Shown here one piece after another: positions 7,524-18,728 of a DNA stretch of 64,000 nt. Position 1 is the stretch's first letter; each line of letters starts with the position of its first letter. Location: NCBI GenBank assembly GCA_016789705.1, contig JAEUQR010000141.1, positions 7,175 to 71,174 of the forward strand, in the 5' to 3' direction. A program made the translations under genes and the position numbers. Source of the stretch: Acidobacteriota bacterium. GTDB lineage: Bacteria; Acidobacteriota; Vicinamibacteria; Vicinamibacterales; UBA2999. The notes beneath the pieces are model-generated. The model did not search any database and was not told the origin of the DNA. It saw nothing but the letters and a program-made list of their open reading frames with translations.

Positions 7524-8468
7524 TTATCCCGAGCGCGCGGCGTCGGGCGTGTGCCGCTCACGGGCCGGCTCGAGCAGCACGTTCGTGACGAGCACCACGA
7601 GGAACATGGCGAGCGCCGGCGCCAGCGTCCACGGGGCCCGCGTCATCGCCGAGATCGTGGCGGCATCACTGAGCGCCGTGCCCCAGCTCGGCACGCCGTC
7701 GGGGAAACCGAGCCCGACGTACGACAGCGTGGCTTCGGCGAGCACGAACATCGGCACGAGCAGGGCCGTCTGCACCGCGAGATAGCCGTGGCAGGCCGGC
7801 AGCAGGTGCCGCGTCATCACACGCCAGCGCGAGGCGCCGAGCGCGACGGCGGCCAGCACGTGTTCCTGCCGCGCCTCCGCGCGCACGATCGCCCAGACCC
7901 CGCGGGCGATCCGCGGCCAGCCGAGCAGCACGAAGATCGCGGCCAGCACGCCGACGATGACCGGCAGCGGCAGCACGAGTGGCAGCGCGGCCCGCAGGGC
8001 CACGACGACATAGAGCACCGGCAGCACCATCAGCACGTCGCCCGTCTTGAGCACGAGGCGCTCGACGAGACCACCGGCCAGGCCGGCCCAGCTCCCGAGC
8101 AGCGCCCCGAGGAGCAGCGTGCCGGCCGTGGCGACGAGCGCGAGCCCGAGTGAGGCACGCGCGCCGTGCAGCGTGCGCGAGAGGACGTCGCGCCCGAGAC
8201 GGTCGGCGCCGAGCAGCAACACGGGCGTGGCCGCAGGTGTCGTCCACGGCAGACCGGCCCGCTGCGACGGGTCTTCGGCGAACGTCTGCTCGAGGCGATC
8301 GAGGGGTCGCAGCGGCACGGTGTAGAGGCCACGACCATCGAGGTGCAGCGGCATGGGCGGCGCGTGCAGATGGTCGTCGAACCGCGTCACGGGGCCATAG
8401 GGCGCCACGAGCGGCCCGGCCACGGCCACCGCGACGAGCACGGCCACGAGCATGAGGGCGCGCCTCAT
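7524..8468 (-). CDS. ABC transporter permease, DppC/OppC-like
   Basis: Real start at MRRALMLVAVLVAVAV (ATG on the complement of 8466-8468). It overlaps the upstream stop in ATGA. Binding-protein-dependent permease pattern: ...SYVGLGFPDGVPSWGTAL. The longer 400-aa track ORF has an R-rich N-terminal extension that overlaps the upstream gene. Confidence 0.85.
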   Translation of the reverse strand: MRRALMLVAVLVAVAVAGPLVAPYGPVTRFDDHLHAPPMPLHLDGRGLYTVPLRPLDRLEQTFAEDPSQRAGLPWTTPAATPVLLLGADRLGRDVLSRTLHGARASLGLALVATAGTLLLGALLGSWAGLAGGLVERLVLKTGDVLMVLPVLYVVVALRAALPLVLPLPVIVGVLAAIFVLLGWPRIARGVWAIVRAEARQEHVLAAVALGASRWRVMTRHLLPACHGYLAVQTALLVPMFVLAEATLSYVGLGFPDGVPSWGTALSDAATISAMTRAPWTLAPALAMFLVVLVTNVLLEPARERHTPDAARSG

Positions 8469-9427
8469 TCGATGCGCCCCTCCAGCACGCGCGGGTCGAG
8501 CGCGGCATGCGCGATGTCGGCCAGTGTCGTGCCGGCGGCGAGCGACACGGCGCCGAGGGCGCCGCAGCCCGCCACGAGCCAGACATCGCGGGCACTGAGG
8601 GCGTCGAATAGCAGCCGTCCGAGTCCGGGCCACGCCGTCACGATCTCGACCACGAAGCTGCCGCTGAAAAGCGCGCCCACGAGCACGCCGTAGGTGCCGA
8701 GCACCGGCGCCAGCGACACCGGCCACGCATGCACCCGCGCGGCGGCGTCGGCGTCGAGGCCACGGGCGCGGCTCGCGGCCACGAACGAGCGCCCGAGCGT
8801 GTCGGCCATGGCGCGTGCCTGCAGACGTTCAAGCGTGGCGGCGAGCGGCAGCGCGAGCGCCAGCGTGGGCACCGGCAGGTGCCGCAGCAGATCGACGAAC
8901 CACGCGGCCCCCGTGAGGCCGCCTGACGTGATGCCGCCTGCCGGCAGCCAGCCGGTGCGGGCGGCGATGAACACGAGCAGGAGCGCGCTCAAGAGCGGCG
9001 GCACCGACAGCACGGCCAGCGACAGCGCGCGCACGACGCGCGACAAGCTGCCCTGGGTCGAACCGGCCAGCCGCCCGAGCGGCAGCCCGATGCCGGTCGC
9101 CACGACGAGCGCCGCCAGCGCGAGCAGCGCCGTGTTCGCGGCGCGCTCGCCCACGAGGTCGGTCACCGGGCGGCGGTACAGCGAGGACCGGCCCATGTCC
9201 AGGCGCAGCAGTCCACCGAGCCAGTGCGCGTACTGGGTCAGGAAGGGCCGGTCGAGTCCGAGCTCGGCGCGCAGCGCCGCGACCTCCTCCGGCGAACGCT
9301 GCAGGCGATCTTCGAGGGCGGGATCGCCCGGCACCAGGCGCGCCAGCAGCAGCGTGAGCGACGCGACGACCAGGGCGAAGATCGCCCCGCTCACGACGCG
9401 ACGCACGGCAAAACGCGCGAGCGACAT
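8465..9427 (-). CDS. ABC transporter permease, DppB/OppB-like
   Basis: MSLARFAVRRVVSGAIFALVVASLTLLLARLVPGDP...; typical DppB N-terminus and six hydrophobic segments. Confidence 0.85.
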   Translation of the reverse strand: MSLARFAVRRVVSGAIFALVVASLTLLLARLVPGDPALEDRLQRSPEEVAALRAELGLDRPFLTQYAHWLGGLLRLDMGRSSLYRRPVTDLVGERAANTALLALAALVVATGIGLPLGRLAGSTQGSLSRVVRALSLAVLSVPPLLSALLLVFIAARTGWLPAGGITSGGLTGAAWFVDLLRHLPVPTLALALPLAATLERLQARAMADTLGRSFVAASRARGLDADAAARVHAWPVSLAPVLGTYGVLVGALFSGSFVVEIVTAWPGLGRLLFDALSARDVWLVAGCGALGAVSLAAGTTLADIAHAALDPRVLEGRIE

Positions 9428-9430
9428 CGA

Positions 9431-11188
9431 CTAGCGGCTCGTGGGCGCGGCCCCGGCGGCGAGCGCCAGCGTGTCGGCGCTCCACAGCAGTTGCGGGCGG
9501 GTCACACCCGGCGTCTCGTTGCGCACGCGCGGCCCGACGGCCACGAAGAGACGGGGTGCGGCGAAATACATCGCCGGCAGGTGTTCACTGAACACCCGCT
9601 GCACGTCGCGGAAGAGGCGCACACGTTCAGCCGGATCCACGTTGGCCGCCTGGCGGTTCACGAGCGCATCCATCTCGCGCTCCCACTCGGTTGCGGGCGT
9701 CTTCTGCGAGATGTTCCAGATGTGCGCGCTGCCGCTGCTCAGCCAGAAGTCGCGTTGCATTGCCGGGTCCGGGTCGGTGGCGACGTAGTTGAAGAAGATC
9801 GCTTCGAAGGTGCCGGCCAGCATCCGCTCGATGAGCGTGCCGGGTTCGAGCGGCGCCAGATCCATCGCAACGCCAACGCGCTCGAAGCTTTCCTTGAGCA
9901 CCTGCGCCCCACGTTCGATCGCGGTGTTGCCCTTGTAGTGGATGAGCGTGAAGCGCGCTTCGTTGCCGGCGGCGTCTTCGAGGAAGGCATCGGCGTCGCG
10001 ATTGGCCAGGCCGAGTTCGGCGAGCAGCGCCGCCGACTTCTCGCGGTCGAAGGCGTACCGTGGCAGGTCGGGCCAGAACCACGCCTTGTTGCCCGGCGAG
10101 ACCGGACCATGCACCGGCACTGCGGCGCCGAGGAACACGGTGTTCGCATAGGCCTCGCGGTCGACGGCGTGATTGAGCGCCTTGCGGAACGTGTCGGTGA
10201 ACAGCCACGCGCGGCGCGGGTCCTTCGCCCACATCGCCGGCCGCAGGTTGAAGAAGAACACGTCGGGATCGAGCGACACGCCCACTTCGGCCATGCGCAG
10301 CCGGCCGGCGCGTTCCATCTCGCGCGCCGTGCCGTAATCGTCGGGCCGGAGCTGCTGCTGCGTGAGGTCGAGATCGGCGGACTGCAGGCCGAGGAGCTCG
10401 GCGTTCTGGTCGGGCACGATCCGCAGCACCAGGCCATCGAGATACGGCAGGCCGATGCCGCGATCGTCCTTGCGCCAGTAGTGGGGATTGCGGGCGAAGG
10501 TGAGCCGCTGCCCCGGTTCGTACTGACTGAGCACGAACGGGCCCATGCCGACGATCTCCGCGGGAGCGGTCGTGGTGCCCCACGCGTCGGCCATCGTGCC
10601 GCCGGTGAGCGCGGCTTCGAGCTTGTGCTTCGGCAGGATGGTCAGGTTGTCGAGCAGGCGAATACCGGGACCGAAGGGATGCGGAAACGTGACCACGACG
10701 GTGCGCGCATCGGGCGTGGCGACCGCGAGCGGATCGCCATCGACCTGCAGGCTGCTCGCGAGCACGCTCTTCACGCGCGGGTCGAACACCGCCGCGAACG
10801 TGAAGGCGACGTCGGCCGACGAGAACGGCACGCCGTCAGACCACGAGAGGCCGTCGCGCAGGGTGAGCGTGTGGACGAGGCCGTCGGGCGACGACGTCCA
10901 CGACTCCGCGAGCCACGACTCGAGCTCATAGGTGGCCATGTTCACGCGCACGAGCCGTGCCTGCGTCAGCAGCGCGAAGAGCTGGGTGGCGTAGTCGCGC
11001 GAGACCAGACGGTTGAACGACCGCGGCTCGCTGCGCAGTGACGCGGCCAGCACGCCGCCACGCTGAGGCAGCTCGACCGTGGGACGGGCGTCCGGCGTGG
11101 GCGCCAGGCTGCGGCTACCCCACCAGAAGTAGCCGAACAGGCCCACCACGAGGATGGCGATGAGGGGAAATCGCGATTGTCGGTTCAC
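9431..11188 (-). CDS. ABC transporter substrate-binding protein, family 5 (peptide/nickel type)
   Basis: 585 aa with a GTG start and an N-terminal signal anchor (FPLIAILVVGLFGYFWW). SBP_bac_5-like segments: RNPHYWRKDDRG..PYLDGLVLRIVPD. It sits directly upstream of the two permease genes. Confidence 0.85.
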   Translation of the reverse strand: MNRQSRFPLIAILVVGLFGYFWWGSRSLAPTPDARPTVELPQRGGVLAASLRSEPRSFNRLVSRDYATQLFALLTQARLVRVNMATYELESWLAESWTSSPDGLVHTLTLRDGLSWSDGVPFSSADVAFTFAAVFDPRVKSVLASSLQVDGDPLAVATPDARTVVVTFPHPFGPGIRLLDNLTILPKHKLEAALTGGTMADAWGTTTAPAEIVGMGPFVLSQYEPGQRLTFARNPHYWRKDDRGIGLPYLDGLVLRIVPDQNAELLGLQSADLDLTQQQLRPDDYGTAREMERAGRLRMAEVGVSLDPDVFFFNLRPAMWAKDPRRAWLFTDTFRKALNHAVDREAYANTVFLGAAVPVHGPVSPGNKAWFWPDLPRYAFDREKSAALLAELGLANRDADAFLEDAAGNEARFTLIHYKGNTAIERGAQVLKESFERVGVAMDLAPLEPGTLIERMLAGTFEAIFFNYVATDPDPAMQRDFWLSSGSAHIWNISQKTPATEWEREMDALVNRQAANVDPAERVRLFRDVQRVFSEHLPAMYFAAPRLFVAVGPRVRNETPGVTRPQLLWSADTLALAAGAAPTSR

Positions 11189-11191
11189 TTG

Positions 11192-11219
11192 TTGGCCGAT
11201 CGGCCAAGAACTTGGCCAA
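11192..11219. promoter_or_regulatory. Perfect 16-bp palindrome TTGGCCGATCGGCCAA plus adjacent 8-bp palindrome TTGGCCAA; candidate regulator or enhancer site
   Basis: Read directly: 11192-11207 TTGGCCGATCGGCCAA and 11212-11219 TTGGCCAA. The site is 4 nt upstream of the SBP GTG start on the minus strand. It is also about 215-230 bp upstream of the sigma-54-like promoter on the plus strand. Confidence 0.35.
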
Positions 11220-11419
11220 TCGTCTCGCTGTTAGTTTTTCGGCCTGTTTTTGCACGGGCTGCACGGTTTCCCGAGCCGCCGGGAGTTCCGCGCAGAGAGA
11301 GCCAACAGCTTGTCCACCAGCTCGCTCGGGCCGTCGCAGCCCAGCCCCGGCGCATCCTAGACCACCAAGTTCTTTGATTGCAATTACTTACGGAAGACCC
11401 CGTAGCCACTGCCGGCCGC

Positions 11420-11434
11420 TGGCACCAGCCCTGC
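11420..11434 (+). promoter_or_regulatory. Sigma-54 (-24/-12) type promoter candidate: TGGCAC-N5-CTGC
   Basis: TGGCACcagccCTGC compared with the consensus TGGCAC-N5-TTGC; the GG and GC dinucleotides have the correct spacing. The -12 GC is 23 nt upstream of the HTH ATG (11458), with GGAG at 11448-11451. An AT-rich tract (11377-11397) lies just upstream. A sigma-54 activator gene lies downstream on the same strand. Confidence 0.5.
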
Positions 11435-11457
11435 CTCTCTTATCGGCGGAGTTCGCT

Positions 11458-11664
11458 ATGGAAACCACTCAGAACCTGACCAGTTCCCCGGCTCTTCCCC
11501 AGCTGGGACGCAGCGTGACCATCGAGCGAGCCGCGGAGATCCTCGGCGTGTCGCGCCGGACGGTTTACTACCGCATCAGCGAAGGCGTTCTGCAGACCGT
11601 CCGCACACGCGGCGGTTCTCAGCGCGTCGTGGTCGAGTCGCTGCTCGGTCAGTCGAAGCACTGA
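11458..11664 (+). CDS. Small helix-turn-helix DNA-binding protein (excisionase/MerR-like HTH_17 type)
   Basis: 68 aa starting at METTQNLTS. HTH segment: VTIERAAEILGVSRRTVYYRISEGVLQTVRTRGGSQRVV. The 150-aa track ORF has an implausible N-terminal extension across the intergenic region. Confidence 0.7.
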   Translation: METTQNLTSSPALPQLGRSVTIERAAEILGVSRRTVYYRISEGVLQTVRTRGGSQRVVVESLLGQSKH

Positions 11665-11723
11665 CGCCCCTTCACCGACACGTTCGCAGGCACAGAGTCC
11701 CCCCGGACCAGGACACAACTTCA

Positions 11724-13469
11724 ATGACCAGCCGCATTCTCGCCGCCCTCGTCGCCGTCGCGATGGCCTCCCCGGCACTGGCCGGCCCCGGTCGCCGCGC
11801 CAGGCTGTCAGCGGACCTCTCCGACGAGATTCGCAAGGGCAACCGCAGCACCGTCGAAGTGATCGTCGATGGCGACGACGCCACGATCAGCCGCGTGCTC
11901 TCGCGCCACCCGCTGCTGCTCAAGAAGCGGCTGCGCCGCGGCGCGGTGCTGGAAGTGCCTGCAGGCCAGCTCGACGCGCTCGCCGCCGACGCCGACGTGA
12001 ACGCGGTGGCCGCCAACGCCGTGGTCACCTCGCACATGGCACTCACCACGGCCACGACAGGCGCCGACGCGGCGCTGAACGGCCTGGTTTCCACCCTCGG
12101 CGCGGTGAACGGCAGCGGCGTGGGCGTGGCCATCATCGACTCGGGTATCGCGGCCCACCGGTCGCTGGCGGGCAAGGTCGTGGCGAGCGTGGACTTCACG
12201 CGCGACGGCCGCGGGCGCGGGCGTGACGGCTACGGACACGGCACCCACATCGCCGGGATCGTGGCCGGCGACGCCATCAGCGTGAAGAACGGCGACGGCG
12301 CCGCGGGCATGGCCCCCGGCGCGCACCTCATCAACCTGCGCGTCCTCGGCAACGACGGCTCCGGTCAGGTGGCCGACGTCATCGAAGCGGTGGACTGGGC
12401 CATCGAGAACCGCGGCCAGTACAACATCCGCGTCATCAACATGTCGCTTGGCACGGCGGTGACGCAGTCCTACAAGGACGACCCGCTCGGTCAGGCCGTG
12501 GAGCGCGCCGTCAAGGCGGGTATCGTGGTGGTGGCTTCAGCCGGCAATCGCGGCGAAACGGCCGACGGCAAGACGGTGCTCGGCAGCGTGACCTCCCCGG
12601 GCAACTCGCCCTACGTCATCACGGTGGGCGCGGTGCGCGCCAACGGCACGGCCGACCGGAGTGACGACACGCTGGCGCCCTGGAGTTCGCGCGGCCCCAC
12701 GCAGTTCGACTCGCTCGTGAAGCCCGACATCGCGGCGCCCGGCAGCCTCATCGCCTCGGCCGGCGTCGAGGGCTCGACCCTGGCGCTGACGCGTCCCGAC
12801 CGGATGAGCAACGCGGGCAAAGCAGCCTACATGACGCTCAGCGGCACCAGCCAGGCGGCGGCCGTGGTAAGCGGCGCGGTGGCCCTGCTGATTGACTCGA
12901 ACCCCCGTTTGACGCCTCTCGGAGTGCGACTCGCGCTGCAGGCCTCGGCGGACTTCATGCCCGAGGCGGGTCTGACCGGCGCGGGAGCTGGCGAACTGAA
13001 CTTGCTGAACGCGCTTCAGGATGGCCAGGTGCTGCCCACGCGCACGACCGCGGACCTGTTCCCGGCCAGCTGGGGTGTGACGGCGAAGGCGGAGGTGGTG
13101 CGGAACAGCTCCGTGAAGGGGCAGACGCTGGTATGGGGCGAGACCCTCGTATGGGGCGACGCCCTCGTATGGGGCGACACCCTCGTATGGGGCGACACCC
13201 TCGTATGGGGCGAGACCCTCGTATGGGGCGACACCCTCGTATGGGGCGACACCCTCGTGTGGGGCGACACCCTCGTGTGGGGCGATACCCTCGTGTGGGG
13301 CGACACCCTCGTGTGGGGCGACACCCTCGTATGGGGTGACTCGATCATTTGGGGCAACTCGATCATTTGGGGCAACTCGATCATCTGGGGCAACTCGATC
13401 ATCTGGGGCAACTCGATCATCTGGGGTAACTCGATCATCTGGGGCAACTCGATCATCTGGGGCAACTAG
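11724..13469 (+). CDS. Secreted subtilisin-like serine protease (peptidase S8) with I9-like propeptide and a C-terminal tandem hexapeptide repeat tail
   Basis: Signal peptide MTSRILAALVAVAMASPALA. Catalytic triad contexts: VAIIDSGI (Asp), GHGTHIAG (His), LSGTSQAAAVVSG (Ser). The last 115 aa are 12x (D/E)TLVWG followed by 7x (D/N)SIIWG. Confidence 0.9.
   Translation: MTSRILAALVAVAMASPALAGPGRRARLSADLSDEIRKGNRSTVEVIVDGDDATISRVLSRHPLLLKKRLRRGAVLEVPAGQLDALAADADVNAVAANAVVTSHMALTTATTGADAALNGLVSTLGAVNGSGVGVAIIDSGIAAHRSLAGKVVASVDFTRDGRGRGRDGYGHGTHIAGIVAGDAISVKNGDGAAGMAPGAHLINLRVLGNDGSGQVADVIEAVDWAIENRGQYNIRVINMSLGTAVTQSYKDDPLGQAVERAVKAGIVVVASAGNRGETADGKTVLGSVTSPGNSPYVITVGAVRANGTADRSDDTLAPWSSRGPTQFDSLVKPDIAAPGSLIASAGVEGSTLALTRPDRMSNAGKAAYMTLSGTSQAAAVVSGAVALLIDSNPRLTPLGVRLALQASADFMPEAGLTGAGAGELNLLNALQDGQVLPTRTTADLFPASWGVTAKAEVVRNSSVKGQTLVWGETLVWGDALVWGDTLVWGDTLVWGETLVWGDTLVWGDTLVWGDTLVWGDTLVWGDTLVWGDTLVWGDSIIWGNSIIWGNSIIWGNSIIWGNSIIWGNSIIWGNSIIWGN
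13122..13337 (+). repeat. Tandem repeat type A: 12 x 18 nt (consensus GACACCCTCGTRTGGGGC, encoding DTLVWG)
   Basis: Units read one by one. They differ at only a few positions: CAG/GAG/GAC/GAT in the first codon, ACG/GCC/ACC in the second, CTG/CTC in the third, GTA versus GTG in the fourth, and a final GGT. Confidence 0.95.
13338..13463 (+). repeat. Tandem repeat type B: 7 x 18 nt (consensus AACTCGATCATYTGGGGC, encoding NSIIWG)
   Basis: Follows type A with no spacer. The units are followed only by AAC TAG. Variants are ATT in units 1-2, ATC in units 3-7 and one GGT. Confidence 0.95.
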
Positions 13470-13545
13470 CCCGGCGCCGAAGCACGTAGTTGTGTGCAGT
13501 TCGCTAACGTCCCTATAGCTCGCACTCTGATTTGCCGAGGTACAT

Positions 13546-13575
13546 ATGAAGCCGCTCATCATCTGGGGCGAGTAG
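13546..13575 (+). other. Orphan degenerate copy of the type B repeat unit (mini-ORF MKPLIIWGE) in the S8 / HD-GYP intergenic region
   Basis: ATGAAGCCGCTCATCATCTGGGGCGAGTAG. The 12-mer ATCATCTGGGGC is identical to the core of the type B unit. It is in a different frame from the S8 ORF and 77 nt past its stop. Confidence 0.5.
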
Positions 13576-13597
13576 AAGCAACAAACCGGTTGGCAGC

Positions 13598-15931
13598 GTG
13601 GTGGACACCCCAAAGAACCGAGTCGGTCGTGTCTACCTCTGGGCGGTTCCCACCGCCGGACTGCTAACGCTCGCCTGGGCGGCAAGAGACTTGGTCGCCC
13701 ACCCTCCTTCAAACTACTGGATTGCGCTTGCAGTCTTAACCGGCCTGACCGGTTCGTTTACAGTAAAGATCCCCGGCATGGTGGCTCGGCTGTCTGTTTC
13801 CGAGCCATTTGTCTTTGCCTCCGCCATGCTGTTCGGCCCAGCCGCCGGCACCGTGACGGTAGCGATTGATGCCTGCGTAATGTCGCTGCGGCTGATGCCG
13901 TCGCTTCGGACGCCCCATCGAATTCTCTTCAACGTCGGCACGCTTGTCGTGTCGGTCGCAGTGTCGGCCGTTGCGTTCTTCAAGCTAGCAGGCATCGACC
14001 CTCGCGCCCCGCACTACCCCTCCGTCGACACCTTTATCTGGCCGCTGTACGTTTTCACCACGCTGTGCTTCGTGCTGAACAGCGGGCTCGTCGCACTGGC
14101 ACTCAGTATCGAGCGACGTGCATCGGCCTTCGCAATATGGCGACAGCAGTTCATGTGGCTTTCGGTGAACTACTTCGCAGGCGCGTCAGTGGCTGCATTG
14201 CTAGTGGTTTACGCCAGAACGGTCGATGCTGCGATTCTCGGTGTCGTCATTCCGTTGATCGCAATCCTGTACCTGACTTTCCGTACAACACTGGGACGTC
14301 TCGATGACGCCAACAAGCACCTCAGCGAGGTGAACTCGCTATACCTTTCGACCATCGAGACGCTCGCGATGGCGATCGATGCCAAAGACCAAGTCACGCA
14401 CGGTCATATCCGTCGCGTACAGCGGTTCGCCGTCGGCTTGGCCAAAGCGCTAGGCGTCAGCGACGACCGTCAGCTGCGTGCGATTGAAGCTGCCGCCCTG
14501 CTTCACGACATGGGCAAGCTTGCGATTCCTGAATTCATTCTCAACAAGCCAGGAAAGCTGACGACTCGCGAGTTCTCCGTCATGAAGACGCACGCGGCAG
14601 TCGGCGCTGATCTGCTCTCATCGATCCAGTTTCCCTACCCGGTTGTGCCGATCGTCCGCCATCACCACGAGAATTGGGATGGCAGCGGATACCCCGACGG
14701 AATCAGGGGATCCGACATTCCGCTGGGTGCAAGAATCCTTTCCGTCGTCGACTGCTACGACGCTCTGACGTCTGACCGCCCGTACCGGCCCGCGATGTCT
14801 CCCGAAGACGCCCTCGACATTCTCTCGCAGCGTCGAGGCAAGATGTACGACCCGCTCGTAGTCGATGCCTTCATCCGCGATCACGTGGCACTCTGTGCGG
14901 GCGTAGAGCTGCGGGACATACCAGCGTTGATTCTGGCGAACCAAGCCGAGACGCATGCGGGCACACAGCCTTCTGCGTCAGACATTAGTACTGTGCAACT
15001 GGAGCCGATCGAGTCTCTTCGCCTGATCGCAAGCCTCTCGCCATTTCCTGAGGGCGCTCCACTGCCAGCCATCTGTCGCCAGATCGTTGACAGCCTCCGC
15101 ACGATTGCCTCATTCGACACGGCCACGGTGTTCTTGCTGGACGATGACTCAAGCGATGCAGAGGCCGTATTCGCCGCAGGCTCCGTCGCGCAACAGGTCG
15201 CGGGCATACGCATTCCGATCGCGGAACGCTTGACTGGATGGGTAGCCGCTCACAGGACGGCAGTCTGGAACTCAGATGCTGCGCTTGACTTAGCCTCAGT
15301 GGCGTCGGGAGCTTCGCTCACGCTTGGGTCGAGTCTCCCCTTGAGCGTCGGCGACGCATTAATCGGAGTGCTTTCACTGTATGGCCGGTCAGACCAAGAG
15401 GTCACTGTCGGCCAGCGCCGCGCTCTTGAATCACTCCTCCCAGCAATCTCTGCCAGTCTTGGCGCAGCCGCTCAGAGACCAGGAATCGCAATCGACTGTG
15501 CCGACGAGCCTACACGACAGGCTGCAACGTCTGCCCTCGATGCCGTGTTGTCTCACGAGCGAGGATCATCAAGCGGCCGGGTCTCGGTGATTGCCGTCAA
15601 TATCGCGCACATAGCATCAGACACTTCGAGGCCTGAGCGCCTTGAGTTGGCGGCGATTGAGCTCTCGGCCCTCCTGTCGCCTTATCGGTCTCGCCACCGC
15701 TGTGTAATTCGCCTCTCGAACAATCAGTTCCTGTTATGCGCCCTTGACGACGCTAACGCGGATGTCCTCGAGGCCGAAGTGGAACGGGCCGGAAAGCATC
15801 GAGCGTTGAGCGCAGTTCGGCTGCTTACTACCCGACTAAATAGCGCTCTTGACCTGCAGGATCGCATCCGCAAGATCGCCGACGGCTCCTCGGCTACGTC
15901 TATTCATGGCCCGATGAGCCGAATCCACTAA
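13598..15931 (+). CDS. Multi-pass membrane HD-GYP domain protein (putative c-di-GMP phosphodiesterase) with GAF and a degenerate GGDEF-like C-terminus
   Basis: GTG start. About 230 aa of TM helices come first. HD-GYP core: HGHIRRVQ...LLHDMGKLAIP...HHHENWDGSGYPDG...ARILSVVDCYDALTSDRPYR. GAF-like segment: ICRQIVDSL...TATVFLLDD...LIGVLSLYG. The tail VSVIAVNIAHIAS...CVIRLSNNQFLLCAL resembles a GGDEF domain with NNQF in place of GGDEF (15710-15730). Confidence 0.85.
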   Translation: MVDTPKNRVGRVYLWAVPTAGLLTLAWAARDLVAHPPSNYWIALAVLTGLTGSFTVKIPGMVARLSVSEPFVFASAMLFGPAAGTVTVAIDACVMSLRLMPSLRTPHRILFNVGTLVVSVAVSAVAFFKLAGIDPRAPHYPSVDTFIWPLYVFTTLCFVLNSGLVALALSIERRASAFAIWRQQFMWLSVNYFAGASVAALLVVYARTVDAAILGVVIPLIAILYLTFRTTLGRLDDANKHLSEVNSLYLSTIETLAMAIDAKDQVTHGHIRRVQRFAVGLAKALGVSDDRQLRAIEAAALLHDMGKLAIPEFILNKPGKLTTREFSVMKTHAAVGADLLSSIQFPYPVVPIVRHHHENWDGSGYPDGIRGSDIPLGARILSVVDCYDALTSDRPYRPAMSPEDALDILSQRRGKMYDPLVVDAFIRDHVALCAGVELRDIPALILANQAETHAGTQPSASDISTVQLEPIESLRLIASLSPFPEGAPLPAICRQIVDSLRTIASFDTATVFLLDDDSSDAEAVFAAGSVAQQVAGIRIPIAERLTGWVAAHRTAVWNSDAALDLASVASGASLTLGSSLPLSVGDALIGVLSLYGRSDQEVTVGQRRALESLLPAISASLGAAAQRPGIAIDCADEPTRQAATSALDAVLSHERGSSSGRVSVIAVNIAHIASDTSRPERLELAAIELSALLSPYRSRHRCVIRLSNNQFLLCALDDANADVLEAEVERAGKHRALSAVRLLTTRLNSALDLQDRIRKIADGSSATSIHGPMSRIH

Positions 15932-15932
15932 C

Positions 15933-18728
15933 GTGCGCGCTCCCGTCGAACACCTTGCAGCCATCGGGAACGTCACCGAGGCTCTGAAGCACCTCAGACA
16001 GGTCACTAATCCTAGTCTGGAGCTCAAAGTGCTGAGGGCAGAGCTCGAAGCCCTGGCGTCACACCGAGAGTTGGCACTCGATCTGGCCACGAGTGTCGCC
16101 TCCAGCGCCGGGCCAGCAGGCGTAATCGTCCGCGCCTTGGCCGTAGCCGGTCGCCTGCACTACTTCTCCGGAAACACACTTGAAGGACGACATCAGTTCG
16201 ACCGAGCAGTCGACATTGCAGCCCACAGCGGCGATGCCGAGCTGGAAGCCCTGGCGTTAGGCGGCCATATTCAGTCGTTGCTTCGATTCATCGGACTGGA
16301 GGCTGCCGTCGGGGGCATCAGCCGGTACAGAAAAGCGGCAATACGCTCAGGCAAGTCGTCTAGCCTCGCAGCTCTTCACAGAACGCTTGCCGAGGCGGAA
16401 CTCAAAGGCGGCAGACGCCACCGGGCATTGCGAGAGCTCGAGCTTTCTGGACTGCACGTCGAAGTGACGCAGGACCAAGTCGCACTCGCGCAGCTGCACT
16501 TTGCGAGAAGCGCAGCCGAGGGCCTGTTAGGCGACCACCTCGCCTCTTTAGAACACGCGAAGCAAGCGGTTACGATCGCAAGCGACTGTGGCGCCACGGC
16601 GATCCTGCAATCAGCGCTCGTCAATGTCGCCCACTGCCAGACTGTCTTGGGCCATCACCGGGAGGCTGAGCAGACCTTCGCAAGACTTGAAGCAGCCAAC
16701 GTCCCCTCTGTCGGCCGCGAGCTGATCGTCCGGAGCAACCAGCTTCTCCTTGCAACAGCCCAACGCGACGAGCATCTCGCCACCGCAATCGACTCTCGAT
16801 ATGGGCCTATCGCGGCCGACCAAGCGCTGACGACAGCGCAATGGTATAAGTTGCAGGCGGTTGAATACCACTTGGCTTTCGGTCGCGCAGCCGAGGCAAT
16901 CACGCTGGGAAGACGCTGCATTGCGGAGCCCACAGAGTCTGACCGTGACTTCTTGGCGAGGACCGAAGCCGCGACTGCCGAGGCGCTTGCGGCAGGAAAC
17001 GAACCCAAGGAAGCGGCCACGCTACTTTGGAGGGTTGCATCCGGGCATTCTGGCGCGTTGCCGGAGTTTCTTGCAGCTGTCCAGAGAGTGGGCGGGAGGC
17101 TCTCGCGCGACTCTGCGAGCGCTGCATTCGAGCTCTTCGCGCGCTCGGGGCGCCTCTACGCCAGTACCGGCCACATTATTGGCTCTGGCGAGGCACTCCA
17201 CGCCGCCGCCACACTGCGCGCCTCTCGCGCGCCGGCAGGCTCGCCCGACGCCGTCGTCCCCCACATCACCACGTTCTACCAGAAGCCACCGGCGTCCTTC
17301 GGACGTGTGGACGAGCGGTCGGACGCCACGCCGACGACGATGCCGGAGGCCGTCGCCAGCGCTGTGCGCGCATCGGCCGCGATGGTGGACCTTACGTCCC
17401 GGCCGGCGCTGGCCGGATACGAGCTGCTCTCCCTGGCCGCTGCGAGCGGCGCGGCGGCATCGGCCGTGATGTTCGCACGCGGCGCCAAGGGCATCGAGAC
17501 GCTCGGCTGGGTGGGCAGCGAGACGCCGGATCTCGCGCTGCACCAGCCGTCGGACGACTGCGTCACGTTCGTGCTGGGTAATGAGCGCGACCGAGAGGTC
17601 TCGGTGGTCGTGCGTCCACGCAACCAGCAGTCGGCACGCACCACGCTCATCGCCCTGCAGCGTCTCGTGACCAACGGCCTGACCCTGCATCGCGCGGCCG
17701 TGGCCGAGAGCGAGAAGTCGGCCATCTGGCCCGAGCCCCTGCCGGAGCAGCAGCTGGGATTCGTCTGCGTGGCCGAATCGATGCTCGAGCTGATGCGGGT
17801 CACCCGTCGGGTGGCCGCCAGCCACTTCACCGTGCTCGTCACCGGCGAGACGGGCACCGGTAAGGAGCTGCTGGCCCGCGCGATCCACAACTGCTCACCA
17901 CGGGCGAAGAAGCCTTTCACGCCGTTCAACTGCACGGCCGTGCCGCGCGAGATGCTCGACAGCCAGCTCTTCGGCTACAAGCGCGGCGCTTTCACGGGCG
18001 CCCTCGACAACTTCCCGGGTGTGATCCGCGGTGCCGCCGGCGGCACGCTGTTCCTCGACGAAATCGGTGAGATCGGCATGGACGTGCAGCCCAAGCTGCT
18101 GCGCTTCCTCGAGTCGAGTGATGTACATCCACTGGGCGAGTCTGCGCCGGTCAGTGTCGACGTTCGCATCGTCGCCGCGACGAACGCGAACCTCGATCGG
18201 ATGGTCGCGGACGGCAGATTCCGCGACGATCTGTACTACCGGCTGAACGTCGTGAAGCTCACGATTCCGCCGCTGCGCGAGCGGCGCGAGGAAATCCCCC
18301 TGCTGCTCGACCACTTCCTGGAACGCAGCATGAAGGAGTGCAGCAAGGCGGGCATCCGCATCGGCGAGACCGCGGCGGAGTTCTTGCTGCTCTACGACTG
18401 GCCAGGCAACGTGCGGGAACTCGCCAACGAGGTGCGGCGGGCGGTGGCGCTCGCCGAATCGGGTGCGGTCCTGATGCCCGAGCACCTGTCGGCGCGTCTG
18501 GCCGCCTCGCGGCGCACGGTGCCGGTGGGCCAGCGTCCGCCGGCCCCCACCGAGCTGCTCGTGCGTCGCGATCAGCCGCTCAACGCCGCGGTGGAACATG
18601 TCGAACGCGCGCTCATCCAGGATGCCCTGCGCATCCACGGCAACGTCGAAGACGCCGCCCGCGCGCTCGGGCTTTCGCGCAAGGGCCTCTACCTGAAGCG
18701 TCAGCGGCTCCGTATCGACGAGGAATAG
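15933..18728 (+). CDS. Sigma-54-dependent transcriptional activator (bacterial enhancer-binding protein) with a long (about 600 aa) helical-repeat/GAF-like N-terminal region
   Basis: The GTG start is 1 nt after the upstream TAA. AAA+ sigma-54 interaction domain: VLVTGETGTGKELLARAIH, GAFTGA (17985-18002), GTLFLDEIGE, RIVAATN. C-terminal Fis-type HTH: AARALGLSRKGLYLKRQRL. Confidence 0.9.
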   Translation: MRAPVEHLAAIGNVTEALKHLRQVTNPSLELKVLRAELEALASHRELALDLATSVASSAGPAGVIVRALAVAGRLHYFSGNTLEGRHQFDRAVDIAAHSGDAELEALALGGHIQSLLRFIGLEAAVGGISRYRKAAIRSGKSSSLAALHRTLAEAELKGGRRHRALRELELSGLHVEVTQDQVALAQLHFARSAAEGLLGDHLASLEHAKQAVTIASDCGATAILQSALVNVAHCQTVLGHHREAEQTFARLEAANVPSVGRELIVRSNQLLLATAQRDEHLATAIDSRYGPIAADQALTTAQWYKLQAVEYHLAFGRAAEAITLGRRCIAEPTESDRDFLARTEAATAEALAAGNEPKEAATLLWRVASGHSGALPEFLAAVQRVGGRLSRDSASAAFELFARSGRLYASTGHIIGSGEALHAAATLRASRAPAGSPDAVVPHITTFYQKPPASFGRVDERSDATPTTMPEAVASAVRASAAMVDLTSRPALAGYELLSLAAASGAAASAVMFARGAKGIETLGWVGSETPDLALHQPSDDCVTFVLGNERDREVSVVVRPRNQQSARTTLIALQRLVTNGLTLHRAAVAESEKSAIWPEPLPEQQLGFVCVAESMLELMRVTRRVAASHFTVLVTGETGTGKELLARAIHNCSPRAKKPFTPFNCTAVPREMLDSQLFGYKRGAFTGALDNFPGVIRGAAGGTLFLDEIGEIGMDVQPKLLRFLESSDVHPLGESAPVSVDVRIVAATNANLDRMVADGRFRDDLYYRLNVVKLTIPPLRERREEIPLLLDHFLERSMKECSKAGIRIGETAAEFLLLYDWPGNVRELANEVRRAVALAESGAVLMPEHLSARLAASRRTVPVGQRPPAPTELLVRRDQPLNAAVEHVERALIQDALRIHGNVEDAARALGLSRKGLYLKRQRLRIDEE

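Follow-up and report, generated by a model that had tools for sequence, protein, structure and literature searches.

A subtilase with a C-terminal hexapeptide array

The window, by which we mean the whole stretch of 64,000 nucleotides that was analyzed, carries on its forward strand (11724..13469) a gene for a pre-pro subtilase of the S8 family, 581 aa in length, as assigned from its open reading frame, Pfam, AF2 and Foldseek. Its product begins with a signal-peptide-like N-terminus, followed by an I9-like propeptide, the catalytic domain, a linker of ~20 aa and a repeat tail of 115 aa. The Pfam model Peptidase_S8 matches aa 130-409 (E 8e-51, 173.5 bits where 21.8 would suffice), and the Asp-His-Ser triad (D139, H172, S376) is invariant in 102 homologues. 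The core of the AF2 model has pLDDT >90, and its top Foldseek match is ProN-Tk-SP (3afg, E 2e-29). The signal peptide, MTSRILAALVAVAMASPALA|G, was assigned by eye only, and the protein is, to judge by its sequence, a secreted pre-pro subtilase with a predicted Sec-type signal. The linker between catalytic domain and tail (~aa 449-466; 13068..13121, forward strand) falls in a stretch of pLDDT <50 that spans residues 449-467.

The tail consists of two blocks on the forward strand, as delimited by in-frame cutting and by TRF. Block A (13122..13337) comprises twelve 18-nt units encoding (Q/E/D)(T/A)LVWG, and block B (13338..13463) comprises seven 18-nt units encoding (D/N)SIIWG, after which come a single Asn codon (AAC) and the stop codon TAG (together 13464-13469, the stop at 13467-13469). 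In order, and in the frame that starts at 13122, the A units read QTLVWG, ETLVWG, DALVWG, two copies of DTLVWG, ETLVWG and six further copies of DTLVWG, while the B units read DSIIWG and six copies of NSIIWG. TRF reports two abutting 18-nt arrays, the first at 13131-13340 (11.7 copies, 94% matches, score 357) and the second at 13339-13467 (7.2 copies, 97% matches, score 237), which are the sole large tandem repeat in the window. An earlier note on this DNA had described twelve plus seven units with no spacer and a stop one codon past the last unit, and the in-frame cutting bears this out; its formula of twelve DTLVWG and seven NSIIWG holds as a consensus from which five units deviate by one residue. 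The variation within the array is mostly synonymous. The clustering of codon variants is also as the note claimed, with GTA in A units 1-7 and 12, GTG in A units 8-11, ATT in B units 1-2 and ATC in B units 3-7, and the rarity of the amplified codons is evident from the rest of the reading frame, where GTA accounts for 1 of 48 Val codons and ATT for 3 of 20 Ile codons.

Copy number among strains

Two further assemblies of the same species (99.1-99.5% nucleotide identity over 9-11.5 kb), located via the protein sequence of the neighboring activator, carry the array in the same register and with the same marker units. The totals differ by whole units: 19 in the window, 15 in L088 (nine in block A and six in block B) and 12 in L089 (nine and three). 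The DALVWG unit is peculiar to the window among the three, and all length variants remain in frame and share the same stop. Exact-match scans of metagenome_contigs for additional strain variants, with a flank anchor and a two-unit anchor, returned no match. In a more distant relative, L001, with a catalytic domain that shares 80% protein identity, the tail comprises 13 block A units and four units of D(T/A)(M/I)IWG.

Short-read mis-assembly, as the source of the array or of its copy number, is an exceedingly improbable explanation. All three same-species sequences are metagenome assemblies, the window coming from a MAG and the two ENA contigs from short reads (k127/k141), they disagree in copy number, and many frameshifts interrupt this region in relatives that were assembled from long reads, all of which might be taken to favor an artefact. 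Against this, the three assemblies share the same ordered marker units, with unique sequence flanking both sides. In the window no perfectly periodic stretch exceeds ~2-3 units, which is well under read length and also below the k-mer sizes given in the contig labels (k127, k141). Dozens of genomes hold orthologous arrays, including long-read assemblies of related species. The array is real and not an artefact of assembly, the outcome that the earlier note had named as a refutation: it recurs in two independent same-species assemblies and in long-read assemblies of relatives.

The footprint of slippage or local duplication that had been read from the codon clusters is likewise supported by near-identical strains with 19, 15 and 12 units. 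The array is thus shown to evolve by whole-unit slippage or unequal exchange and to be homogenized within each genome, and copy number therefore differs from strain to strain. The suggestion of a length-variable, contingency-type tail stands in its first half only: the length does vary, but because the units are 18 nt long and in frame, changes in copy number are unable to switch the gene on or off.

Distribution of the repeat family

Most of the 120 best homologues of the S8 protein bear C-terminal Φ-Φ-W-G arrays, each of them homogeneous, with spacings between cores of 8 (n=329), 9 (188), 6 (141) and 12 (126) residues. The search for periodicity in other S8 proteins that had been proposed thus finds uniform arrays, with a period that varies from 6 to 12 between orthologues. 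The Φ-Φ-W-G core is kept in orthologues down to ~35% identity, and many of these arrays reach within one residue of the C-terminus. The spacers between cores range from 2 to 8 residues and share no conserved cleavage motif. Among 86 S8 loci analyzed (those from the genome scan together with L001-L007), 47, mostly from Acidobacteriota, are tail-bearing and 39 are tail-less. A word-indexed search with the tail alone returned 32 matches, all of them S8 fragments, and missed the YdcK-type relatives described below; in both this search and an exhaustive one, Φ-Φ-W-G arrays were seen on S8 proteins only. As judged from these searches, the repeat family is phylum-wide, restricted to one subtilase clade and absent by name from databases. 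Literature searches on the motifs, on Acidobacteria subtilisin repeats and on mini-ORF peptides found nothing relevant.

Two candidate readings of individual homologues were set aside. The notion that the tail is dispensable, since close relatives lack it, fails for P0002, P0023 and P0027, which are frameshifted gene calls whose DNA holds arrays. An apparent HTH_17-S8 fusion in P0108 is probably a read-through gene call.

These features bear on the possibility that the tail is a C-terminal pro-extension, which would aid folding, outer-membrane passage or zymogen inactivity and would later be removed and degraded. C-terminal pro-sequences of some secreted subtilases play such a role. The flexible linker is a plausible processing site, the pre-pro layout is like that of Tk-SP-like subtilases, and the tolerance of differing copy number and period fits a role that demands no precise binding geometry. 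Nevertheless, we regard this as unlikely: the tail has no similarity to known C-terminal pro-domains, phylum-wide conservation of Φ-Φ-W-G seems excessive for a disposable segment, and the many arrays that end within a residue of the C-terminus leave no separate sorting signal.

Fold of the tail

The full-length AF2 model, built on a 102-sequence alignment, places one strand of 3-4 residues in each unit over residues 468-554, at pLDDT 65-73, and drops below 50 in the last 25 residues. A tail-only model (72-sequence alignment) has a mean pLDDT of 53, too poor to use, and Foldseek relates it to LbH proteins only at non-significant values (E >1, TM <=0.23). The structure prediction that the earlier note had called for therefore yields regular short strands in the full model, at modest confidence. 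The strands are too short for an autotransporter barrel, and no TM segment follows the array as it would in a PEP-CTERM-type sorting signal; both candidates were rejected.

Sequence searches point to a more specific relationship. Exhaustive phmmer with the tail gives 3608 matches, and 111 of the best 150 are classed by a motif-count regular expression as [DN]-A-x-V-[YFS]-G hexapeptide proteins; all ten matches that were scanned with Pfam hit PF18836, B_solenoid_ydck (E down to 2e-39). One protein of this hexapeptide class, P0165, with (D/N)AxVWG units, aligns with the tail by BLASTP at 43% identity over 112 ungapped residues and in turn hits 2f9c, a solved structure of YdcK, at E 7e-7; it is itself sub-threshold on PF18836 (15.3 bits against 30). 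Periodicity inflates the E-values of all such phmmer and BLASTP comparisons. Against the PDB, phmmer matches the tail to LbH proteins in the same V-W-G-D-T-L register at similarly inflatable E-values of 0.009-0.09, while a profile built from 15 hexapeptide tails returned no LbH protein from the PDB and just a chance W-rich match. On the Pfam model Hexapep (PF00132) the tail scores 10.1 bits (E 0.71, cut-off 27) and the full protein has no match. The real tail has no match to PF18836, and an idealized (DALVWG)n reaches 23.9 bits, where the cut-off is 30.

Unit positions 1, 2, 4 and 6 hold the same residue classes in S8 tails and in YdcK-type units. Across 307 S8 units, position 4 is V/I in 73%, position 2 is S/T in 65% and Trp is present in all; position 3 is I/L/V in 84%, versus K/R/Q/T/E in YdcK-type units. 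Since position 3 is aliphatic rather than polar, the outside would be greasy and the fold possibly different. Where the period is 12, it corresponds to two hexapeptides that share V (columns 2 and 8) and G/S/A (columns 4 and 10), with a lag-6 aliphatic autocorrelation of +0.40, and the interleaved hexapeptides that lack Trp retain the same V and G positions. A fold accounts for this conservation better than a series of cores to be cleaved apart. An 18-residue turn cannot be common to orthologues whose periods are 8-11.

By sequence, then, the nearest relatives of the hexapeptide form are the YdcK-type beta-solenoid repeats, [DN]-A-x-V-[YFW]-G, and the tail is probably a left-handed beta-helix of YdcK type, as suggested by the sequence matches and AF2. 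Given this kinship, the scores below the Pfam thresholds and the predicted hydrophobic outside, we consider it a variant of a known repeat type. The earlier hypothesis of a new W/G-based beta-solenoid is accordingly upheld in part: a solenoid with three units per turn is the best-supported fold, since exhaustive phmmer puts PF18836 proteins first, but the solenoid type is not new. Similarly, the statement that the repeat does not fit the canonical LbH motif is right for the W at i+1, which is not one of [GAED], and wrong for the aliphatic residue at i and the S/T at i+4, which do fit.

A quite unlikely alternative is that the tail has no fold at all, being either a sticky segment of multivalent aromatic 'stickers' or a nearly neutral product that slippage leaves behind, with a drifting copy number. 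Variable period and copy number, model confidence that is moderate to poor and scores below threshold for all Pfam families would be as expected of such a segment. Conservation of the core down to ~35% identity would not, nor would the mostly synonymous variation within arrays or the 6-residue sub-period that persists in degenerate units. The composition, V/I, W, G and D/N in strict alternation, is also typical of beta-solenoids and unlike that of disordered linkers.

Gene neighborhood and the mini-ORF

The first gene of the cluster (11458..11664, forward strand) encodes a predicted DNA-binding protein of 68 aa with an excisionase/MerR-like HTH_17 domain (Pfam E 2e-6), its start ATG and SD having been read from the sequence. 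Genes for HTH_17 proteins of 67-81 aa lie directly upstream of S8 in L002-L007, L009, L014 and L040. A candidate sigma54 (-24/-12) promoter, TGGCAC-N5-CTGC, precedes the HTH_17 gene at 11420..11435 on the forward strand, as a pattern match with two mismatches. The number of such matches across the window is not above chance; a GG-N10-GC element occurs ~25-60 nt before the HTH_17 start in nine related loci. A consensus scan found no sigma70 promoter, and Rfam gave no match on 11000-14000. A terminator scan of 11100-13800 found no terminator-like site, and hence none between the cluster genes in that interval. Shuffled sequence folds better than the intergenic RNA does (z +2.6), for which reason a riboswitch or attenuator reading was dropped.

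Downstream of the protease, on the same strand, lie genes for a membrane c-di-GMP signalling protein of 777 aa with MASE9-like, HD-GYP and GAF regions (13598..15931; Pfam HD_5 E 3e-42, GAF_2, weak MASE9) and for a sigma54 enhancer-binding protein of 931 aa that begins with a long sensor region (15933..18728; Pfam Sigma54_activat E 5e-63, HTH_8). The activator is identical to MBL8138290.1, and in the orthologues from L002 and L003 its sensor region contains TPR_MalT. Divergent from the cluster, on the reverse strand (7524..11188), are genes for an oligopeptide-type ABC importer, namely SBP_bac_5 at 9431-11188 and permeases at 8465-9427 and 7524-8726, as assigned from open reading frames and the Pfam families of orthologues. 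An HD-GYP homologue occurs within 6 kb, in several gene orders, at 22 of the 47 tailed S8 loci and at 6 of the 39 tail-less ones; for an SBP5 homologue the corresponding counts are 19 of 47 and 2 of 39.

Between the S8 and HD-GYP genes lies a mini-ORF, MKPLIIWGE*, with the SD GAGG (13546..13575, forward strand), which is conserved across loci and copies one unit of the tail, matching the B unit at 12 of 15 nt. It begins 76 nt past the S8 stop and ends 22 nt ahead of the HD-GYP start. Mini-ORFs of 8-11 codons occupy the same position in 12 other distinct loci, in the duplicate contig L004 and in the same-species L088 and L089. In the alignment of the S8/HD-GYP intergenic region the mini-ORF is the sole conserved block, and the changes within it are mostly synonymous. 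Its product has no export signal and is limited to one clade. We read HTH_17, S8, the mini-ORF and HD-GYP as a conserved, predicted sigma54-dependent operon.

A working model and the peptide alternative

Taken together, these observations lead us to a joint reading, which we hold to be about as likely to be right as wrong, of the array as the YdcK-type beta-helix tail of a secreted subtilase, tuned by slippage, surface-holding or oligomerizing, and encoded in a predicted sigma54 operon. The tail would form a rod-like C-terminal domain, a left-handed beta-helix of ~six turns with three hexapeptides to the turn. In the register V-W-G-D-T-L, the V/I (i) and T/S (i+4) would face inward, the Gly would sit at a corner of the helix and the tryptophans would stack as ladders beside the corners. 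The L/I that precedes V/I (i+5) would face outward, which would make the surface of the rod unusually hydrophobic. The rod presumably stays on the mature enzyme, where its hydrophobic, Trp-lined faces may tether the protease to a surface (that of the cell envelope, a polymer or a particle) or drive oligomerization. Its length would be tunable via copy number, while between orthologues the length of the unit differs and Φ-Φ-W-G persists as the core. The beta-helix reading leaves the unit-copying mini-ORF unexplained.

The hypothesis of a multi-copy precursor, processed by the protease to release many hexapeptides, found no direct support: there are no maturation enzymes nearby, and V and G are kept in the hexapeptides that lack Trp. 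The linkage to an importer and the unit-copying mini-ORF keep the idea of a peptide ligand alive, albeit at low probability. In its fuller form, the protease itself or another would free x-x-Φ-Φ-W-G peptides from the tail, the ABC importer would take them up, and the TPR-type sigma54 activator or the MASE9/GAF protein would sense them and feed back on the operon, with the mini-ORF supplying an intracellular version of the motif. Such a circuit has a precedent in Bacillus, where Phr peptides are matured by subtilisin-type proteases and the imported peptides are bound by TPR regulators. Consistent with it, genes for tailed S8, HD-GYP and SBP_bac_5 are co-located in at least four gene orders across Acidobacteriota classes, the repeat is confined to this protease clade, and a conserved mini-ORF with one unit-like peptide adjoins the sensor gene. 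The proposal that MASE9 is an intramembrane ligand binder (10.1101/2021.11.05.467447) also counts in its favor.

Several observations nevertheless make this circuit unlikely. Neither peptide-modifying nor dedicated export genes appear among the genes and Pfam families listed for the surrounding loci, and no modification, cleavage or export genes of the precursor type were found among the neighbors, which are HTH_17, HD-GYP, the sigma54 activator, the ABC importer and housekeeping genes. The variable spacers lack a cleavage motif, the V and G of interleaved Trp-free hexapeptides suggest a fold, and AF2 predicts regular strands. Roughly one in two loci with a tail lacks an HD-GYP or ABC neighbor, and the mini-ORF is both clade-limited and devoid of an export signal. 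Should the Φ-Φ-W motif be a ligand after all, which we likewise think improbable, the protease tail would be its variable-number store and the mini-ORF a single intracellular copy or a nascent-peptide sensor on the ribosome; with the importer and the TPR-type activator, these would make up an undescribed, Acidobacteriota-specific, peptide-sensing c-di-GMP circuit.

Significance

Few bacteria of soils are as abundant as Acidobacteriota, whose extracellular proteases drive the turnover of nitrogen; to our knowledge, little has been learned of how these proteases are held and regulated. The tail defines an unannotated C-terminal module, found throughout the phylum in a single subtilase clade, that looks like a relative of the YdcK-type beta-helices with Trp ladders and hydrophobic faces. 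Confirmation would make it a beta-solenoid of naturally tunable length, with 12-19 units in one species and periods of 6 to 12 residues between species, and as such of interest to repeat-protein evolution and design. The conserved sigma54/HD-GYP/importer neighborhood, together with the unit-copying mini-ORF, points to the protease as part of a regulated signalling module and not as a stand-alone digestive enzyme. For annotation there is a warning as well, in that several database homologues look 'tail-less' owing to frameshifts in gene calls from long reads.

Comparison with known systems

Like the tail, the YdcK-type repeats (PF18836; 2f9c/2pig) form long uninterrupted runs of six-residue units of the form [DN]-[small]-x-[VI]-[aromatic]-G. 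They differ in that the aromatic residue is Y/F/S, whereas Trp is invariant in the tail (P0165, too, uses Trp at the aromatic position), and in that position 3 of the tail is I/L/V. The tail also falls below the Pfam threshold and follows a secreted S8 protease, where YdcK has an N-terminal domain of its own, and orthologous tails, unlike the YdcK type, have periods of 8-12 residues as well. With the LbH hexapeptide transferase repeat (PF00132; LpxA, gamma-carbonic anhydrase) the tail shares a period of 6, the aliphatic residue at i and S/T at i+4, but W replaces G/A/E/D at i+1, the Gly is moved to i+2 and there is no acyltransferase context.

The grass antifreeze beta-roll (PF21300, LbR_Ice_bind) is, like the tail, a short-period repeat with Gly turns, although of different period; only two orthologues with 8-residue units (SDTVIWGD), P0030 and P0083, pass its threshold, and by a narrow margin (30.9-36.4 bits against 30), the S8 protein of the window has no match to it, and we know of no Trp ladder in that family. 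The nonapeptide beta-rolls of type I-secreted RTX proteases such as serralysins offer a similar layout, in which the C-terminus of the secreted enzyme is built of short tandem Gly/Asp-containing repeats, again with an expected parallel beta-roll. The RTX motif GGxGxDxUx is absent from the S8 protein, Pfam HemolysinCabind does not match it, and its predicted signal is N-terminal and Sec-type, not C-terminal and type I, on a protease of family S8 and not M10.

The choline-binding CW_binding_1 repeats and GW modules are a possible analogy, as tandem Trp/Gly-rich repeats of variable copy number that keep a hydrolase attached to a surface polymer. Their units, however, are of ~20 or 80 residues versus six here, no sequence match was found and the host here is diderm. 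Multi-core precursors (cyanobactin PatE, fungal Kex2-processed repeats, Bacillus Phr) resemble the tail in their many near-identical short units, and the locus resembles such systems in that the subtilase adjoins oligopeptide importer genes. The tail departs from them in that the units are on the protease itself, lack a conserved flanking cleavage or recognition sequence, show a fold-like sub-periodicity and are not accompanied by tailoring enzymes. Finally, the mini-ORF recalls leader peptides and uORFs (TnaC, the Erm and Cat leaders, eukaryotic MAGDIS) in being very short, in having its own SD, in lying immediately 5' of a putatively regulated gene and in encoding a conserved peptide, whereas no attenuator/terminator structure was found and it has no similarity to known leader sequences; that it should resemble one of the repeat units in the gene before it has, as far as we know, no precedent.

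Repeat array and host protease

The subtilase gene (11724-13469, plus strand) encodes a 581-residue protein in which the Pfam Peptidase_S8 match spans residues 130-409. Its N-terminus, judged by eye, resembles a Sec signal peptide, its catalytic triad is without change in 102 homologues, and its core is modeled by AlphaFold2 with pLDDT >90, the top Foldseek match of the model being the pro-form of Tk-SP. TRF reports an 18-nt tandem array at 13131-13340 (11.7 copies, 94% matches) and a second 18-nt array abutting it at 13339-13467 (7.2 copies, 97% matches), with no comparable tandem repeat elsewhere in the 64-kb window. Read in frame starting at 13122, block A comprises 12 units (QTLVWG, ETLVWG, DALVWG, two DTLVWG, ETLVWG, and six DTLVWG) and block B seven (DSIIWG and six NSIIWG), followed by a single Asn codon and TAG, just as an earlier note made from the sequence alone had described. 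Its synonymous markers are likewise clustered, with GTA in A1-7 and A12, GTG in A8-11, ATT in B1-2, and ATC in B3-7, and the two codons it called unusual are indeed rare in the ORF outside the array, where GTA accounts for 1 of 48 Val codons and ATT for 3 of 20 Ile codons. Long ORFs crossing the array in other frames or on the opposite strand (12537-13712 and 13016-13465, minus; 13133-13339 and 13336-13518, plus), which encode repeats such as PQMIEL and PHTRVS, were rejected as by-products of the periodicity.

Copy number between strains

Encoded 2.5 kb downstream is a sigma54 activator with the same sequence as MBL8138290.1, found in an Acidobacteria MAG; a mate of this protein in its 90% cluster led to two ENA contigs of the same species, L088 (99.5% identical to the window over 11.5 kb) and L089 (99.1% over 9.0 kb). 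Both carry the array between unique flanks, with marker units in the window's order and fewer copies: 12 A and 7 B units in the window (19 in total), 9 and 6 in L088 (15), and 9 and 3 in L089 (12). The DALVWG unit is present in the window alone among the three. All three are metagenome assemblies, both ENA contigs being short-read, and copy numbers that differ between assemblies might raise the suspicion of an assembly artefact. However, the three are concordant, and this explanation is barely credible. Because the changes comprise whole units, the markers are shared and ordered, the flanks are unique, and no perfectly periodic stretch is as long as the k-mers given in the contig names, we take the copy-number differences as real.

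The two-block layout recurs in L001, from a related species whose catalytic domain has 80% protein identity, with 13 x (N/D)TLVWG followed by 4 x D(T/A)(M/I)IWG. Its A unit has GTC where the window has GTA, which implies that units are homogenised within each genome. Whole-unit strain differences and homogenisation within genomes both favor the recent slippage or local duplication proposed in the earlier note. Its suggestion of a contingency locus applies only as length polymorphism (19, 15, or 12 units), since gaining or losing 18-nt units in frame cannot switch the gene.

Tail family in other S8 proteins

Arrays with a Φ-Φ-W-G core (Φ, hydrophobic) terminate most of the 120 best homologues, annotated largely as just 'AprX' or 'S8 family peptidase'. 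Core-to-core spacing is constant within one protein and variable between proteins, with 329 intervals of 8 residues, 188 of 9, 141 of 6, 126 of 12, 75 of 10, and 48 of 11, and the C-terminus lies one residue past the last unit in many homologues. In a survey of 86 S8 loci, drawn from one genome per species plus the previously fetched loci L001-L007, the tail is present at 47, from Vicinamibacterales, Terriglobia, Bryobacterales/Solibacteraceae, and a few non-Acidobacteriota. When the tail alone was the query, arrays turned up on nothing but S8 proteins or S8 fragments.

P0002, P0027, and P0023 are, among homologues that seem to have no tail, the closest to the window protein. These are frameshifted long-read gene calls, as the underlying DNA (L001 10001-12191, L006 7000-7700, and L007 7000-7680) encodes 13-17 units and the adjacent HD-GYP genes are broken likewise; the tail is thus under-reported in protein databases. 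Terriglobia-type orthologues have a short conserved acidic end after the array (...SDGQDGEN, ...DAGDDEQ, ...GEK, or ...GEQ; loci L018, L025, L026, L033, L034, L036, L037, L038, L045, L046, L054, L069, L072, and L083), which may be a separate terminal signal, whereas Vicinamibacterales-type proteins end directly at the last unit.

Fold of the tail

On sequence grounds, the structural unit of the tail is the hexapeptide. In nine proteins with a 12-residue period, the W-free half retains V/I/L (column 8 matching column 2) and, two residues on, G/A/S (column 10 matching column 4), and aliphatic autocorrelation in 12-residue-period proteins is maximal at lag 6 (+0.40). An exhaustive phmmer search with the tail against 1.84 billion representatives returned 3608 hits. 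When the top 150 were classified by regex motif counts, 111 proved to be non-protease hexapeptide proteins of the form [DN]-A-x-V-[YFS]-G, and all 10 of the hits scanned against Pfam match PF18836, the YdcK beta-solenoid repeat. One protein of the hexapeptide class with Trp, P0165, is 43% identical to the tail over 112 ungapped residues and has a PF18836 score below threshold (15.3 bits vs 30). It matches the solved YdcK structure 2f9c/2pig (E 7e-7), and a phmmer search of the PDB aligned the tail to gamma-carbonic-anhydrase-like left-handed beta-helices (E about 0.01), although E-values are inflated when periodic sequences are compared. Trp occurs at the aromatic position of both P0165, (D/N)AxVWG, and a second protease-unrelated YdcK-type protein, P0190, (D/N)A(K/E)IWG. 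At the level of sequence, these two proteins bridge the gap between S8 tails and the known YdcK-type family.

The register of the PDB alignment places V/I at position i and T/S at i+4, so that the misfit to the hexapeptide motif asserted in the earlier note holds at i+1 and not elsewhere, and three units per turn become the natural expectation. Against Pfam Hexapep the tail scores 10 bits, below the cut-off of 27, and against PF18836 it gives no match. Neither (DALVWG)n nor (NSIIWG)n, as idealised arrays, reaches a Pfam threshold, and a profile of 15 tails found no left-handed beta-helix structure. From a 102-sequence alignment, AlphaFold2 predicts a single strand of 3-4 residues per unit over residues 468-554, with pLDDT of only 65-73, falling below 50 in the linker (449-467) and over the final 25 residues; a tail-only model was poor, with insignificant Foldseek matches. 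This modest model confidence, together with the variable period, would suit an unstructured tail or a neutral product of slippage, which we consider unlikely. The flexible linker and the pre-pro layout of the protease would suit a removable C-terminal pro-extension, another improbable reading.

Our preferred reading, which we hold with evenly balanced confidence, is that the tail would form a Trp-laddered, YdcK/left-handed-beta-helix-like solenoid that remains attached to the secreted enzyme, a hydrophobic-faced rod of tunable length that may anchor or oligomerise the protease. What the data establish is the array, its variation, the family, the hexapeptide unit, and the kinship in sequence; the details of the fold, the persistence of the tail on the mature enzyme, and its binding role are proposals. 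Just before the inward V/I, 84% of S8 units have I/L/V, where YdcK-type units have a polar residue; such a rod would thus expose Trp and a second hydrophobic residue, from which we infer an exterior meant for burial, either in an oligomer or against the surface of a partner. Orthologues with periods of 8-11 residues cannot share the turn length of the hexapeptide tail, and two of them touch a grass antifreeze beta-roll model; the tail family probably covers several solenoid cross-sections.

Gene neighborhood and intergenic mini-ORF

The gene lies in a conserved cluster that begins with an oligopeptide ABC importer (minus strand) and continues on the plus strand with a 68-residue HTH_17 gene (11458-11664), the S8 gene, a MASE9-like/HD-GYP/GAF gene (13598-15931), and the sigma54 activator (15933-18728). 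A GC trough at about 13500-17000 (0.56-0.63 vs 0.68-0.74 elsewhere in the window), beginning to fall within block B, takes in the HD-GYP gene together with the 5' half of the activator gene. The cluster is kept in L001-L007, with proteins 48-80% identical. Near tailed loci, HD-GYP homologues (22/47, vs 6/39 untailed) and homologues of the oligopeptide-binding protein SBP5 (19/47 vs 2/39) lie downstream, divergently upstream, or with ABC genes in between; HD-GYP is divergent from S8 in L017, L019, L024, L026, L030, L037, L054, and L058, and ABC genes take other orders in L018, L028, L036, and L041. Such varied gene orders across Acidobacteriota classes imply more than shared ancestry, and the proximity points to a functional module instead of synteny by descent.

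The HTH_17 gene is closely preceded by a -24/-12 type element, TGGCAC-N5-CTGC (11420-11435, plus strand), and GG-N10-GC occupies the corresponding place in nine related loci, including L001, L002, L003, L005, L006, L007, L009, and L014. A scan of 11100-13800 found no terminator-like site, and hence none from HTH_17 to the HD-GYP start. From the conserved element and the terminator-free genes we infer a probable sigma54-dependent operon under the activator encoded at its end. An apparent HTH_17-S8 fusion, P0108 (654 aa), is probably a read-through gene call, the two genes being 30-60 nt apart in all loci.

Between S8 and HD-GYP lies a mini-ORF encoding MKPLIIWGE (13546-13575, plus strand; ATG AAG CCG CTC ATC ATC TGG GGC GAG TAG), separated by 76 nt from the S8 stop and by 22 nt from the HD-GYP start, with a GAGG Shine-Dalgarno sequence. 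Equivalents with ATG and Shine-Dalgarno occupy the same interval in a further 12 distinct loci (L004 being a duplicate of L003, and L088 and L089, of the window's species, carrying an identical mini-ORF), among them L002 9802-9828, L003 9862-9888, L005 9911-9940, L006 7735-7764, L007 7714-7743, L011 7926-7958, L012 7712-7738, L013 7884-7916, and L040 7606-7635, with a tandem pair in L008 (7899-7931 and 8001-8030) and a frameshifted copy in L001. The products, of 8-11 codons, follow M-x(1-4)-[LI]-I-[IV]-W-x(1-2), like one tail unit (MNRLIIWGE, MNRLIIWGD, MKTIIIWGE, MLKLIIWDE, MASIIVWD, MKRIIVWD, MRIIVWTD, MLVRAIIVWS, and MVKRPIIVWS), a pattern with a background elsewhere of 0.02 per kb of strand (2.3 Mb). 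The mini-ORF is the sole conserved block of the intergenic alignment, and its changes are mostly synonymous; Trp and the Ile two positions earlier are invariant, ATC and ATT are used 6:6, and seven codons serve the L/I position. Invariant residues with free codon use imply selection on the peptide, and the mini-ORF is, as judged from these comparisons, a real element. Compared with the tail unit, its DNA agrees at 12 of 15 nt in the window; in L012, where an unusual W-T-D occurs in both tail and mini-ORF, the agreement is 13 of 15. It was not found at loci without an HD-GYP gene directly downstream of S8. The region has no Rfam match, and its RNA is less structured than shuffles. In L006 (7790-7815) and L007 (7765-7790), a hairpin with seemingly compensatory arms (CCCCTGGGA...TTCCAGGGG vs CCCTTGGGA...TCCCAAGGG) occupies a gap of about 65 nt between mini-ORF and HD-GYP start; the 22-nt gap of the window has no hairpin.

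The beta-helix reading cannot explain the mini-ORF, which may serve the HD-GYP gene as a peptide-dependent upstream ORF or act as a ligand of one of the sensor domains; for MASE9 domains, ligand binding within the membrane has been proposed (10.1101/2021.11.05.467447). Mini-ORF and gene neighborhood would both accord with a tail that is a peptide precursor or part of a ligand circuit, but the lack of tailoring genes, the variable spacers, and the fold-like sub-period argue otherwise, and we regard this reading as unlikely. Were the motif a ligand in a sigma54/c-di-GMP module, its interest would be high; that of the tail itself is moderate.

Relation to known repeats

The tail is not covered in the literature searched, nor by Pfam, NCBIfam, or PDB entries. 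Structurally, it is best called akin to an already known kind of repeat, the hexapeptide beta-solenoids; what is new is that it is confined to one subtilase clade and has a hydrophobic exterior and a plastic period, together with a mini-ORF that copies its unit.
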